DNA from: Candidatus Poribacteria bacterium
Lineage (GTDB): Bacteria > Poribacteria > WGA-4E > PCPOR2b
Assembly (NCBI GenBank): GCA_965208675.1
Contig: OZ242351.1
Location: 1,120,001-1,184,000 of the forward strand
DNA: 64,000 nt
Direction of reading: 5' to 3'
The position numbers and the translations under genes were made by a program. This document shows positions 28,292-33,412 of the stretch, one piece after another. Within the stretch, counting starts at the first letter, position 1. Every line of letters begins with the position of its first letter. Below the pieces are notes generated by a model, which was not told the origin of the DNA, did not search any database, and worked only from the letters and a program-made list of their open reading frames with translations.

Positions 28292-29080
28292 TCACCCATG
28301 GACTGCGTCTGCAAATCTCTTCATCAACGAAATGGAGTTTTGCTGTTCAATGACGTTTCCTGTCACGATAAAGTCCGCCCCGGCGTTGACCTTTGCAACC
28401 GCCATCTCGGGCGTAGTGATTCCTCCACCCACTATGATAGGGATAGTGACATGTTTGCGAACTGCGCCGATTATTTCGTCGGGAACCGGTATTTTTGCAC
28501 CGCTGCCCGCCTCAAGGTAGATGAACTTCATACCGAGATACTCTGCGGCAAGCGCGTGCGCCCACGCAATGTCCAATTTATCACGCGGGAGCGGGGCGGT
28601 CCCGCTCATAACTTCAACCGAAGTAGCGGTACCACCGTCAATAAGCATATACCCTGTGGATATCGCCTCTATACCACAACGGTGAATCAATGGCGCCGCT
28701 TTAACCTGCTCGCCGATTAGAAAATTGGCATTCCGGCCGCTGATTAGGCTTAGATATAATATGGCATCGGCATGTTGGGATAGGTGCATAGAGTCCCCGG
28801 GGAACACAATGACCGGTAACGACGTCTCATCCCTCAAGGCCTTTGCAAACGGGTTGAGGTCATTTGTCAAGAGGCTGCTCCCCAGCAACAGTGCATCAAC
28901 TCCGGCTTCTTCCGCTTGATGCGCAGCATGAACGCAATCCGCGATGGAATGCCGATCCGGGTCTAAGAGTACGATGTAGCCTGCTCTGCATCTTGACAGG
29001 ACATTCCGTAGGTAATCTAAGGTTGAACCTGATTTCATGGGGTTAGGTGTTTGGAGATATGTTTTTTCAATTCTTCTCAC
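28292..29080 (-). CDS. Geranylgeranylglyceryl phosphate (GGGP) synthase, group II
   Basis: LLDPD, LLGSS, LPVIVFPG, ADAILYLSLISGRN..FLIGEQ, IYLEAGSGA, PIIVGGGI, GADFIVTGN: PcrB/GGGPS TIM barrel with group II signature; start uncertain. Confidence 0.92.
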   Translation of the reverse strand: MRRIEKTYLQTPNPMKSGSTLDYLRNVLSRCRAGYIVLLDPDRHSIADCVHAAHQAEEAGVDALLLGSSLLTNDLNPFAKALRDETSLPVIVFPGDSMHLSQHADAILYLSLISGRNANFLIGEQVKAAPLIHRCGIEAISTGYMLIDGGTATSVEVMSGTAPLPRDKLDIAWAHALAAEYLGMKFIYLEAGSGAKIPVPDEIIGAVRKHVTIPIIVGGGITTPEMAVAKVNAGADFIVTGNVIEQQNSISLMKRFADAVHG

Positions 29081-29116
29081 GCCGCCATTGAATCTGATGG
29101 AATTAGACCGATTGCG

Positions 29117-30310
29117 TCAGAGCCATCCAGAGAGTATGAGATGTCTCAATTCCAGTAGTAAGCGTGGTTGGTGCATCAATACCGTCTTAAAAATCTGCGT
29201 CATGTTGACCTTGTCAGGCGGCATCTTTGACACCACCTCTGCACACTTGTCAAAAAGGTCATCACTGAATTTGAGCACACCATCTCGTATTCGGCAGACG
29301 TGCTTGAAATTACTGCCAATTTCCTTATCCCACCGGTTTTGATATTCGCTCAAAATCTTTGCGGACACATCTCCAATCTGGATTGCATTGACCGCAGCCT
29401 CGGCGGCAAATTGTCCCGAATACATTGCGTTTGCGATTCCACCGCCAGAAATAGGATCGCTATGGTGCGCCGCATCGCCAATCAGAGCGATTCCGTCTCC
29501 GACAATCTTGGGCAGGCTATTGCCTACCGGCACACATCCGACGACCTGCGCAAGAATTTTTCCGTGTGGAAATTTTCGTTTGACGAATTCATTTAGATAG
29601 TCGATGGCGAGCTTCCCGCCCTTGCCTGAGATTGTCCCGCCAATTCCGATGCCGACATTCGCAATGTCATCTCCCTTGGGGAAAACCCAGGCATAGCCTC
29701 GCGGCGCAAGCTCCCGCCCAAGGTAAAAATCGCAGAAATCGGGGATAATGTCGATCTTAGAAATTAAGTATTGGGCGCAAATGTCCACGTCCCGTAAATC
29801 GTGTGTGCTATCTATGCCCGCCCATCGAGCTACCTGCGATTCAATTCCGTCGGCGGCGATCACGACCTTCGCCTTGCATGAGTAGTCACGTCCGAAATAA
29901 CGGAATTCCACCCCGTTGACGAAACCGTCATCTGACTTGGAAACGGTAGTCACCCTGGCTTTAACAATTATGTCGGCACCCGCGTCCGCCGCCATTTCCG
30001 CCAAGACACGATCGAAGACCTTGCGCTCTAAAACATAACCGGCGCCCGGAAAATGGATTGTGGCGGGGGTTTCGTTTGGAGAAAAGATTCGAGCACCGTT
30101 AATCTCGCGCGAAACCCACGCCGGATCGGGCTGCACAAACTCGCACAGCGACGCTGTGCCAATCCCCTCCGCTCAACGCACGGGCGCCCCGATTTCCTGA
30201 CGTTTTTCCAACAATAAGACACGCAATCCATTATCTGCGGCAACCTTTGCTGCTATTGCGCCTCCAGGACCGGCACCGACAACAATGACATCATAGTCCG
30301 AGTGAAACAT
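29117..30310 (-). CDS. Archaeal-type digeranylgeranylglycerophospholipid (geranylgeranyl) reductase, 397 aa, with an in-frame TGA at codon 46 (candidate selenocysteine)
   Basis: ORF-track pieces 30173-30418 and 29117-30136 are in the same frame, joined by TGA at 30173-30175: [17 protein letters not shown]...[16 protein letters not shown]...; [12 protein letters not shown] and DPISGGGI are intact; ATG overlaps the ferredoxin stop (TGATG). Confidence 0.88.
30137..30165 (-). promoter_or_regulatory. Candidate bacterial SECIS hairpin
   Basis: mRNA UGA-GCGGAGG-GGAUU-G-GCACAGC-[GUC]-GCUGUGC-G-AGUUU: 7-bp apical stem, G-first loop 20 nt after UGA, weak lower stem. Confidence 0.65.
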
Positions 30311-30528
30311 CAAAAAAGTCCCCGTCCTTCGTATGCCGGGTAATACACCTTGCCGTTTCGTTCTAATGCAAGCACGCCTACCGGGCAACCTTTGATGCAC
30401 CGCGCACAGTCGGTACACTTTGGCTGGTCAATTTTCAGGTAAATATCAACGAGATCAATGATGTTCTCAGGACAGACGGCAACACAAGCCCCGCAATAAC
30501 TACAAAGTTCTTCGTCTATAAGAATCAT
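30310..30528 (-). CDS. 2x[4Fe-4S] ferredoxin
   Basis: [12 protein letters not shown] and [12 protein letters not shown]; stop overlaps the reductase start. Confidence 0.92.
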
Positions 30529-30639
30529 CGCATGCCTTTCCCGCTTGAGAACGTAATTTCTTCAGCGTGAGTTTCCTAATATTTGGATTCATTTAACGTT
30601 TAATGGTCAACTACTTTTCTTATGCATTTGCTATCGAAG

Positions 30640-31467: not shown

Positions 31468-32331
31468 CTATGGGGAAGATCCAAGGTAGATTGCCCCCAA
31501 TCCAATGAAAATGTCCCACTTCATCCATTTTTGAATCTTTGCGCTGTTGGCTTTAGAATCATTCCGCCAAAGCCGAAAGCCTAAATAGATTAAAACCAAA
31601 TCCACACCCACGATAACGGTTAAAAGATAATGCCACGAGTACCAATTCAGTAAATAAGGAATAGGACTGAACAGTATGACCGCGGTGATGAAGATGAGTG
31701 CAACCAGCACGGCAACTCGTTTTCCCCAAACAACCGGGATTGTACCTGCATCGTTCCGAACATCACCCTCCATATCCTCAATGTCTTTAATTATCTCTCT
31801 TGCGGTGGTAAACAGGAACGCAAATACCGCTGGAACGAACGTACCGTATACAGTCAGCACCGAGGTTCCTCCTACAATGAAAGTTAAACCTGTCAGTACC
31901 CCGACTAGGAGGTTACCGAATAATGGTGTCTGTTTCAAGCCGAACGCGTAAAAGCATAGACAACCGGACACGATGACGGTGATTACCGCTGTGGGCACGT
32001 TTACTGCAAATCCAAGCAATATTCCCAGTCCCATCAATATTATAGAAAACACCATGGCGCCCTGTCGGGAAATCCTTGCGGACGGAATCGGACGTCCGGG
32101 TTTGTTAATCCGATCTATCTCGTAGTCACAATAATCGTTGAGCGCATTTCCCGCCGATAGGAGGAGAAACGCCGAAATCGCTGCCAAAAACACATCGATA
32201 TTAGTAACAACGACCCATTCCCCCATTCCGACTGCAAACTTGGCTCCGAAATAGACGGAGCAAAAAGCGATCAATCCGTTTATTGGACGTGAAAGTTCAA
32301 GATAAGCTGAAGTCATACGGGTAACCGCCAA
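31468..32331 (-). CDS. Digeranylgeranylglyceryl phosphate (DGGGP) synthase-like UbiA prenyltransferase
   Basis: L-x-RP-x-N start, AGNALNDYCDYEIDRINKPGRPIPS, AREIIKDIEDMEGD...TIP motifs typical of the DGGGPS subfamily; multiple TM helices. Confidence 0.85.
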   Translation of the reverse strand: MAVTRMTSAYLELSRPINGLIAFCSVYFGAKFAVGMGEWVVVTNIDVFLAAISAFLLLSAGNALNDYCDYEIDRINKPGRPIPSARISRQGAMVFSIILMGLGILLGFAVNVPTAVITVIVSGCLCFYAFGLKQTPLFGNLLVGVLTGLTFIVGGTSVLTVYGTFVPAVFAFLFTTAREIIKDIEDMEGDVRNDAGTIPVVWGKRVAVLVALIFITAVILFSPIPYLLNWYSWHYLLTVIVGVDLVLIYLGFRLWRNDSKANSAKIQKWMKWDIFIGLGAIYLGSSP

Positions 32332-32344
32332 ATGCGTAGGGTTG

Positions 32345-33412
32345 TTACGCGTCGCGCCCTGGATATGTGATGCCGAATCTTGCGGAATAATACCAGCGTA
32401 TGAGAATTAGACTTCCTGCGAGTAAAATAAGATAAAATGGGACTAAAACACAAGCGATTAGTGAAAGAATGAGTATACCAGCCCGTGCCGCGAAGATAAT
32501 TACCCTTCGTTCTCTCCTGAAGTTCATATATATGAAAGGCGGTAAACAGAGTAATGCGGTAAACAATGGTATCATATCTCTGACCCGCCATGCGGCCAAA
32601 ATTGCGCCTACCAATAGCAACAAGCTCAACAAGCAGGATAGCTTGGCGCCTAATATTACGCCGGTGGTACGATCTCCGAATTCACTGTCGCCGTTCAAAT
32701 CTGGGAGCGTTGTGTTGACAAAGGCTGCCCCCACACACAAGGCATAAGGGATTATCCGCCGCAAGGCTTCGCTGTTAATCGGCGCTGCTATCGCCCAGCC
32801 GATTAAAAATGCGATGCCGCCATAGCCGACAGCGTTCGCTAAAAGGTCGAGGAAGGGTCGCCCTTTTAATCGAACTGGACGAACGGAATAAATCACGCCA
32901 AGTAAGATTGAAAGCCCAATTAGGACGAGATAACTCAGGTTGTTTCTAAACCATAAGCCTGCCCAGACCACGGCAGAAACCAGTAACATGCCGGCTTCCA
33001 ATACAAGCAGCCGTAATTTCACATGTCCCTGAGCAACGAGAAAGAGTTTGTTGTTTGCGGCGTCTGTTTCTTTGTCGCAGATTTGATTGATGATGTAAAT
33101 TGCCCCCATCAGCATAGAGTACAAACAGAGGGTACCCATCAACTCATGATTGGGACGAACCAATATATTAAATTTCGGTAGAAATGAGAGCTGTACTGCC
33201 CTCAATCCTTCGTATGTAGGATTTTCAGTCAATGCGCCATAATGGCCAAGCAACACAAGCGTCCAAACCGGCAACAGTAGTGTTGGACGAAGGACAATCA
33301 GATAATCCAAAAGATGCAACGCTTTTTGTGTCGCGGATTGCAGCTTGTTTTGAGTGAGTGAATTTCCCATTACAAATCCGACCGCGCCCGAGATGCCGCG
33401 TCTACAATACAT
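32345..33412 (-). CDS. Second UbiA-family prenyltransferase, substrate unknown
   Basis: YIINQICDKETDAANNK, YS..P.RLKGRP..D, TLPDLNGDSEFGDRT; multiple TM helices; start uncertain. Confidence 0.85.
   Translation of the reverse strand: MYCRRGISGAVGFVMGNSLTQNKLQSATQKALHLLDYLIVLRPTLLLPVWTLVLLGHYGALTENPTYEGLRAVQLSFLPKFNILVRPNHELMGTLCLYSMLMGAIYIINQICDKETDAANNKLFLVAQGHVKLRLLVLEAGMLLVSAVVWAGLWFRNNLSYLVLIGLSILLGVIYSVRPVRLKGRPFLDLLANAVGYGGIAFLIGWAIAAPINSEALRRIIPYALCVGAAFVNTTLPDLNGDSEFGDRTTGVILGAKLSCLLSLLLLVGAILAAWRVRDMIPLFTALLCLPPFIYMNFRRERRVIIFAARAGILILSLIACVLVPFYLILLAGSLILIRWYYSARFGITYPGRDA

Follow-up and report, generated by a model that had tools for sequence, protein, structure and literature searches.

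Does an in-frame UGA at the position of a catalytic cysteine mark a broken gene, or is it read as selenocysteine (Sec)? The question is raised by a geranylgeranyl reductase (GGR) gene in a 64,000-nucleotide stretch of DNA, here called the window, from a Candidatus Poribacteria bacterium (GenBank assembly GCA_965208675.1, contig OZ242351.1, positions 1,120,001 to 1,184,000). Positions below are those of the window, except that coordinates prefixed C1 refer to the genome. The gene, which encodes a flavin adenine dinucleotide (FAD)-dependent enzyme, occupies 29117..30310 on the minus strand, and its in-frame UGA lies at 30173..30175, codon 46, where the reading frame and alignment to the structures 3OZ2 and 3ATQ place the flavin-proximal catalytic Cys. 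A first-pass annotation made from the sequence alone had proposed that this codon, U46, is read as Sec. Every check suggested there that we ran came out in favour of that proposal and none produced a refuting result, and we conclude with high confidence that the gene is a conserved selenoprotein gene, a Sec variant of a known enzyme family in a form that is apparently undescribed.

On the minus strand, positions 30310..29117 form one frame of 397 codons plus a stop, and its sole break is the TGA at 30175..30173, so the frame joined by the first-pass annotation was reproduced. The terminator of the gene is also TGA (29117-29119), which means that TGA is an ordinary stop in this genome. Standard open reading frame (ORF) calling splits the frame into pieces of 81 and 339 amino acids (aa), the latter beginning at GTG 30136, 12 codons past the TGA. 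The ATG of GGR (30310-30308) overlaps the TGA stop of a ferredoxin gene by base 30310 (TGATG), the coupling described earlier. The GxGxxG motif (VVGAGPGG, residues 10-17) lies upstream of the UGA and Rossmann-type Pfam matches span residues 6-50, while the motifs beyond the UGA, already described as intact, are all present in the translation: YAWVFP (YxWxFP), LIGD (LxGD) and DPISGGGI (GGG). The three patterns are listed as GGR motifs in PMC10821996 and PMC6309074. The protein scored 236.6 bits against TIGR02032 (GG-red-SF; cut-off 158.8) and 90.6 bits against PF22578 (GGR_cat; cut-off 27), and these curated models assign it to the GGR family. It had been called archaeal-type, a label that holds for the enzyme family but not for the host, which is a bacterium, as its HrcA, GrpE, DnaK and RlmB-like neighbours indicate.

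The earlier claim that the UGA aligns to a redox-relevant Cys was upheld by both structures: U46 falls on the Cys of PVRCGEG in the Thermoplasma acidophilum enzyme (3OZ2; E = 3.6e-79, full length) and on that of KPCGDAV in the Sulfolobus acidocaldarius enzyme (3ATQ; E = 1.8e-33). This GGR has no literal Cys at the flavin-proximal position; the UGA occupies the aligned site and, read as Sec, would supply the selenium analogue. The aligned residue (Cys45 in T. acidophilum, Cys47 in S. acidocaldarius) is described as lying behind the isoalloxazine ring and as conserved in all archaeal and all demonstrably active GGRs, and is 'thought' to modulate the redox behaviour of the flavin or electron transfer (PMC10821996, PMC6309074, PMC12004948). 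Cys47 of the S. acidocaldarius enzyme is reported to be essential for catalysis (PMC10821996, PMC6309074).

We tabulated codon 46 across 176 Poribacteria genomes, 56 of which carry a GGR gene (42 in the order to which the window belongs and 14 outside it). Within the order (families f1-f4), TGA was found in 40 of the 40 genomes whose match covers the site, the other two of the 42 having partial matches that fall short of codon 46. Protein identity across the TGA-bearing genomes of the four families is 69-100%, and the TGA stands in the same column of 38 distinct poribacterial sequences. None of the 14 genomes from other poribacterial orders or classes has an internal stop in GGR. Where sequences were fetched from other orders, the codon was TGT or TGC (11/11, 50-68% identity), and Cys was present at 59 of 59 non-poribacterial loci from Chloroflexota, Ignavibacteriota, LCP-89 and many archaea (57 called by script, L120 and L121 by eye). 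Rather than being private to this strain, the outcome that the first-pass annotation had named as damaging, the TGA is fixed across four families of one order, and with Cys in the homologues it makes a clean Sec/Cys pair.

The TGA is not an assembly error, the other concern raised at the outset. The genome is a single contig of 4.89 Mb (96.4% complete), and the stretch recurs in sponge metagenomes from 10 studies. In contigs of four other studies no difference is listed at 30173-30175 or at 30143-30159, the hairpin described below; the differences displayed all lie elsewhere (X5, 12 of 12 displayed; X11, 28 of 28; record 12 of X7, 7 of 7; X10, 14 of 19). The TGA is thus kept in independent contigs as well as in the 38 distinct poribacterial sequences. 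A metagenome scan with the degenerate motif E-I-G-x-P-x-R-TGA-[A/G]-E-G returned 40 matches, 28 of them GGRs that all form 6 or 7 of the 7 hairpin pairs; the remaining 12, with 0-3 pairs, were discarded as chance matches. Twenty of the metagenome Sec-GGRs had sufficient length for comparison: 19 share 80-100% identity with members of the poribacterial Sec clade, and the twentieth is the contig L185 described below.

Selection was compared across the TGA using 30 distinct 1194-nt coding sequences, among which synonymous divergence is saturated. The ratio of nonsynonymous to synonymous changes (pN/pS) was 0.109 for codons 1-45 and 0.182 for codons 47-397. Purifying selection is evident on both sides of the UGA: the upstream part is no less constrained than the remainder, and the downstream part shows no decay.

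A hairpin resembling a bacterial selenocysteine insertion sequence (SECIS) follows the UGA after a 13-nt spacer (30143..30159, minus strand; GCACAGC-GUC-GCUGUGC, a 7-bp stem closed by a G-initial triloop). We aligned 37 Sec-form sequences (35 distinct), giving 245 cells at seven pairs each, and compared them with 500 shuffles. Stem cells were paired in 97.1% of cases, cells changed on both sides numbered 24 versus 7.4±2.2 in shuffles, and the covariation score was 0.375 versus 0.214 (0/500 shuffles reached the observed value for either of the last two). Slid registers were at most 62% paired, and RNAalifold on its own predicted the same 7-bp stem. Compensatory changes occur at three of the seven pairs (C-G to U-A; A-U to G-C; C-G to A-U or U-A), and the loop of Sec forms always begins with G followed by U or G (GUC, GGC or GGA). 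Synonymous divergence reaches its minimum for the gene over codons 47-58 (0.435), versus 0.776 for codons 59-397 (elsewhere ~0.72-0.78, saturated).

The pairing accompanies the UGA. The 35 Sec forms average 6.80 of the 7 pairs; the mean is 1.91 for the 11 Cys-form Poribacteria and 2.21 for 58 other Cys forms. One stem change, from GCACAG/CUGUGC to GUGCAG/CUGCAC, turns Thr52...Cys56 into Ala52...His56; the hairpin evidently couples amino-acid changes here, the RNA element shaping the protein sequence.

All four components of the Sec machinery, whose absence would have spoken against the proposal, were found in this genome. ARAGORN predicts one tRNA-Sec with anticodon TCA (C1:2131405-2131498), selB (367.5 bits) and selA (595.6 bits) lie directly beside it, and selD (375.8 bits) has an in-frame TGA of its own (KCAG-U-ASKL); the selA, selB and selD matches all exceed the model cut-offs. 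More widely, selA was detected in 60 of 61 sampled genomes of the order, the only genome without a match being a metagenome-assembled genome in 730 contigs (90% complete). It was also present in four of five Cys-form Poribacteria tested and in two Chloroflexota with a Cys-GGR, so Sec machinery alone does not account for the recoding. Previous work has described Sec variants of group-4 [NiFe] hydrogenases in nine phyla, Poribacteria included (PMC13582414), and an enrichment of SelA and SelB in sponge-symbiont bins (PMC5649159).

We then scanned the whole genome for UGA codons with coding sequence on both sides and a following hairpin, requiring G at the first loop position but not the loop GUC. 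Only 12 candidates were returned, and GGR (30143-30159, minus strand; context R-U-AEG, spacer 13 nt, stem 7 bp, loop GUC) ranked second. Three others belong to known selenoprotein families by Pfam and NCBIfam: a Prx-like AhpC/TSA protein of 484 aa (C1:4576070, L139, plus strand; W-U-PSC, spacer 15 nt, stem 6 bp, loop GUC), an HMA metal-binding protein of 110 aa (C1:3086991, L144, minus strand; T-U-GGC, spacer 16 nt, stem 7 bp, loop GUC), which falls below the cut-off of the NCBIfam 'metal-binding (seleno)protein' model that it matches, and an FdhA-like molybdopterin enzyme (C1:1611772, L142, minus strand; A-U-HAPT, spacer 11 nt, stem 7 bp, loop GGUCU). The FdhA element, GGUUGCC-GGUCU-GGCAGCC, is one that we take to be closely similar to the SECIS of Escherichia coli fdhF. 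The scan is incomplete as a selenoproteome, having missed selD (C1:4650435, L147, minus strand; G-U-ASKL, spacer 11 nt, stem 6 bp, loop GGG). By these features the putative GGR element resembles its counterparts past the UGA in the Prx-like, HMA, FdhA and selD genes of the same genome.

A tree of 103 GGRs placed all 34 Sec forms in one clade (Shimodaira–Hasegawa-like approximate likelihood-ratio support, SH-aLRT, 99) that sits within a ladder of Cys-form Poribacteria, and a second tree gave the same topology for the Sec clade. The poribacterial sequences are sister to Chloroflexota GGRs (SH-aLRT 96), apart from the archaeal ones. A single Cys-to-Sec change at the base of the order would be the simplest history. 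The lineage already used Sec before that change, because selA occurs in Cys-form Poribacteria and in Chloroflexota with Cys-GGR, as noted above. We found no Sec-GGR in Chloroflexota, a weak negative in which 3 of 401 sampled genomes had an orthologue at E <= 1e-50, none with TGA, and at most four candidates were scored per genome.

One metagenome contig stands apart from the poribacterial clade. L185 (1675 nt; site 220-250) carries a candidate Sec-GGR only 45-48% identical to all others compared and groups with Cys forms of LCP-89 and Ignavibacteriota (SH-aLRT 99). In the same register, its UGA is followed by a hairpin of its own (GCGCAA-CGGGU-UUGCGC), and this single 1.7-kb contig may represent a second, independent Cys-to-Sec change. 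A broader reading builds on it: GGR would be an unrecognised selenoprotein family in which selenium was recruited on at least two independent occasions (in the poribacterial order and in the unrelated LCP-89/Ignavibacteriota-like lineage of L185), the residue would act directly in catalysis and selenium would be advantageous. We regard this as possible but, for now, doubtful. If it were true, the residue would take a direct chemical part, as a proton, electron or hydride relay to flavin or substrate, instead of being a passive modulator; selenium would be of benefit, for example by raising turnover or by protecting against irreversible oxidation; and largely aerobic sponge symbionts would run a ferredoxin-driven enzyme typical of anaerobes, yielding saturated archaeal-like ether lipids in a bacterial membrane.

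The neighbours of GGR are all on the same strand and suggest what the enzyme does. In transcription order, the string begins with a UbiA-family prenyltransferase of 355 aa (32345..33412; PF01040, 67.9 bits), followed by a second one that resembles digeranylgeranylglyceryl phosphate synthase (DGGGPS; 31468..32331; PF01040, 146.9 bits). The best NCBIfam matches of the DGGGPS-like protein are NF009523 (237.4 bits, cut-off 269) and NF009521, the geranylgeranylglyceryl phosphate (GGGP) geranylgeranyltransferase model (223.9 bits, cut-off 296), both below equivalog cut-offs. The 355-aa protein is more divergent, and its best NCBIfam match is a weak one to a generic prenyltransferase model (56 bits). 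A SpoU-type methyltransferase gene lies between the DGGGPS-like gene and that for a 2x[4Fe-4S] ferredoxin (30310..30528, 72 aa; Pfam Fer4 families), which overlaps GGR. Directly downstream of GGR is a PcrB-family GGGP synthase (GGGPS; 28292..29080; NF003198, 274.3 bits, cut-off 247; TIGR01769, 206.6 bits, cut-off 161.55; PF01884), and hrcA, grpE and dnaK come after it.

The ferredoxin recurs with GGR well beyond this genome. In 30 of 34 Sec forms the gene is immediately preceded by an ORF with two CxxCxxCxxxC motifs, and the same arrangement was seen in 8 of 11 Cys-form Poribacteria and at 49 of 56 other loci. Ferredoxin-GGR fusions, recognised by the same motifs, make up 32 of the 120 database matches listed (465-510 aa; P0072-P0121), and two Cys-form Poribacteria (G061, G062) have open frames of 475-477 aa in which ferredoxin is fused to GGR. 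Such fusions are Rosetta-stone support for functional coupling. The GGR of Methanosarcina acetivorans is reported to need the ferredoxin of an adjacent gene (PMC10821996, citing Ogawa et al. 2014). Because the module is conserved and sometimes fused, and by analogy with M. acetivorans, the coupled ferredoxin is the probable electron donor of the poribacterial enzyme. The position of GGR between GGGPS and the DGGGPS-like gene points to ether-lipid chains as its substrate.

These observations fit the following mechanism. The ribosome would meet the UGA at codon 46 of the GGR mRNA, where the hairpin 13 nt downstream, inside the coding sequence, would act as a bacterial SECIS element and recruit SelB with Sec-tRNA(Sec), and Sec would be inserted instead of termination. 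The product would be a full-length FAD enzyme of 397 residues with selenium in place of sulfur at the residue against the isoalloxazine ring. The most likely source of electrons would be the ferredoxin of the gene just upstream, and the enzyme would most likely saturate the geranylgeranyl chains of ether lipids made with the neighbouring GGGPS and UbiA-type prenyltransferase. The change from Cys to Sec would have occurred once, at the base of one order of Poribacteria, and been kept since by purifying selection. A Sec-containing geranylgeranyl reductase, with the hairpin as SECIS, is in our judgement very probably what the locus encodes.

Several observations weigh against this account or favour another. 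A nonsense mutation, or a TGC or TGT miscalled as TGA, would leave no full-length enzyme; standard gene callers do split or truncate the gene, and four relatives have copies with extra frameshifts or stops (G033/L042, L061, L063, G135). Such a pseudogene or sequencing error is effectively refuted by conservation, with the TGA fixed in 40 of 40 site-covering genomes of four families at 69-100% identity and found in the metagenome contigs of other studies, pN/pS of 0.11 and 0.18 at saturated synonymous divergence, and a covarying hairpin that accompanies the TGA. The UGA could instead be real and not decoded as Sec, either terminating translation, with a shorter product as the functional protein (for example the 339-aa ORF from GTG 30136, 12 codons past the TGA), or being read by a near-cognate Trp or Cys tRNA with the hairpin as a mere stimulator. 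We consider this very unlikely: the 45 upstream codons are the most constrained (pN/pS 0.11) and carry GxGxxG, so that a protein started downstream would be without its FAD-binding motif; the UGA falls exactly on the essential redox Cys, the classic Sec signature; the genome has the full Sec machinery; and in spacing, stem length and loop the hairpin agrees with its counterparts in the known selenoprotein genes of the genome. The short hairpin has weaknesses of its own. The fold energy of the 69 nt past the UGA is no better than that of shuffles (z = -0.28; +0.37 for L185), so support for the element comes from covariation and from the contrast between Sec and Cys forms and not from thermodynamic stability. 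In the covariation test, whose shuffle control is inflated by relatedness, two of five measures did not beat the shuffles (pairs changed on both sides, 3 versus 2.4, 258/500; further pair types, 9 versus 9.0, 360/500). Seven of the 245 stem cells are unpaired, four of them at the loop-closing pair, and three sequences (L034-L036) have C-C or C-U at one pair. Part of the conservation is protein constraint, as the hairpin lies within coding sequence, and the G-initial loop shared among elements was partly built into the genome scan. An Rfam scan of 29000-30600 gave no SECIS family at E <= 10; its matches to sR11 (E 0.27) and engA (E 5.2) are irrelevant to the hairpin.

A different doubt concerns function, since a true Sec-GGR could act on another substrate: geranylgeranyl diphosphate or phytyl precursors, polyprenols, quinone side chains or GGGP-derived monoethers. 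GGR-family enzymes are described as acting on many prenyl substrates, sterols included (PMC12004948, PMC6309074). The protein does not reach the digeranylgeranylglycerophospholipid (DGGGPL) reductase equivalogs NF041160, NF041080 and NF041385 (300.6, 179 and 101.8 bits versus cut-offs of 780, 580 and 700), and we therefore file it under the GGR family only, its identity as a DGGGPL reductase being suggested by gene context. The archaeal-type ether-lipid pathway is likewise represented in part, with GGGPS present, DGGGPS below cut-off only, and neither CarS (PF01864) nor a glycerol-1-phosphate dehydrogenase (G1PDH) equivalog found in this genome; the best NF002022 score is 79.4 bits on a GldA-like protein (cut-off 413), and none of five Fe-ADH_2 ORFs is a G1PDH equivalog. 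Among the 61 sampled genomes of the order, GGR was found in 31 and GGGPS in 40, and 19, including 19 of the 20 of genus g5, had neither gene by these queries, so GGR is dispensable within the order. In family f2, GGGPS was present in 13 of 14 genomes and GGR in 5. Together these points keep the lipid substrate at the level of a reasoned proposal, and another substrate is unlikely yet has a real share of the probability. It is opposed by the same-strand placement of GGR between GGGPS and the DGGGPS-like UbiA gene, by the T. acidophilum DGGGPL reductase being the best structural relative (E = 3.6e-79, full length), by a ferredoxin-GGR module common to archaeal lipid loci, and by the joint loss of GGR and GGGPS in genus g5. 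As a separate observation, the patchy distribution of ether-lipid genes in the order suggests repeated loss, and GGGPS working without this reductase.

Several known systems come close to the proposed Sec-containing reductase. The T. acidophilum DGGGPL reductase shares GxGxxG, YxWxFP, LxGD, GGG and PVR-[C/U]-xEG over its full length, and a 4Fe-4S protein gene is described in its locus; it differs in having Cys45 where the poribacterial gene has UGA/Sec, in its archaeal host and in a reported use of NADPH in vitro (PMC10821996). Against the corresponding Thermoplasmatales equivalog model the poribacterial protein remains far below the cut-off, as given above. The S. acidocaldarius GGR (3ATQ, 3ATR, 4OPC and others) belongs to the same fold family, with Cys47 aligned to U46, but it has Cys instead of Sec, its C-terminal domain is longer (453 aa), and its locus is without a ferredoxin gene (PMC10821996). 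The M. acetivorans GGR also has an adjacent ferredoxin, which in Poribacteria is coupled, mostly conserved upstream and fused in some; it is a Cys enzyme of an anaerobic archaeon, whereas ferredoxin dependence in Poribacteria is deduced from the comparison. Like bacterial selenoproteins with a SECIS inside the ORF (E. coli fdhF type), the poribacterial gene has a UGA on a redox Cys, selA, selB, selC and selD in the genome, and a stem-loop of the kind that begins 11-16 nt past the UGA and has G and U or G at its apex. Unlike them, GGR is not among the selenoprotein families that we found in print, and its element is a minimal one that consists of a 7-bp stem and a triloop and shows no obvious bulged U.

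The first-pass annotation had expected automatic pipelines to misread the gene, and the databases bear this out. We examined 120 listed matches from a collection of 5.8 billion proteins. Among these, 57 start at query residue 54 or later and none of those covers site 46; they include every match with at least 69% identity. The other 63 cover the site, with Cys in 61 and two not placed by the regular expression. Source names among the matches listed were NAD(P)/FAD-dependent oxidoreductase, geranylgeranyl reductase family protein and digeranylgeranylglycerophospholipid reductase, and none of the 120 was named a selenoprotein. Since the truncated ORFs are without the FAD-binding motif, metabolic reconstructions of Poribacteria mis-score this step. 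A search of full-text literature found no report of a Sec-containing GGR, in line with the first-pass annotation, which knew of no GGR among described selenoprotein families; the search did not extend to subscription journals or supplementary tables, so an entry in a large selenoproteome table is possible.

A Sec-GGR would add a lipid-biosynthesis flavoenzyme to the selenoproteins on clean comparative evidence, namely a fixed UGA, a nested single origin and a SECIS-like element in Sec forms only. The natural Sec/Cys pair, at 65-68% identity within one phylum, offers an experimental handle on the role of Cys45/47. The bacterial GGGPS/ferredoxin/GGR/UbiA cluster also bears on the 'lipid divide', that is, on which bacteria make archaeal-type saturated ether lipids, and its host phylum is a dominant group of sponge symbionts.

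The genome scan returned further candidates. Two of them, L145 (a PSCyt2/PSD1 protein) and L146 (a polysaccharide-synthesis protein), appear to be false positives, and we regard L141 (an FG-GAP/ASPIC protein) as doubtful. A 161-aa protein without a known family (C1:3590691, L140, plus strand) has a UGA in the context ATF-U-QC and the loop GUU. A 510-aa protein with no Pfam or NCBIfam match (C1:2542700-2544229, L143, plus strand, outside the window) has a UGA in WGALDDESC-U-ANGKRL followed by a 7-bp hairpin with a GGUC loop, and has paralogues at C1:2539561-2541932, 903743-906159 and 3422231-3423073. Of 41 genomes of the order, 20 contain members of this family; a single genome can have as many as 12 matches, often in tandem arrays, and 71 of 86 matches contain exactly one TGA, making it a candidate for an expanded, unnamed selenoprotein family. 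Lastly, two identical copies of a UGA plus hairpin (GCCGGC-GUAAU-GCCGGU) lie ~9.5 kb apart at C1:2463697 and C1:2473196 on the plus strand, in a frame that is otherwise open for 196 and 50 codons around the UGA in the genome scan; a repeated or mobile gene is one possible explanation, a duplicated selenoprotein gene another.

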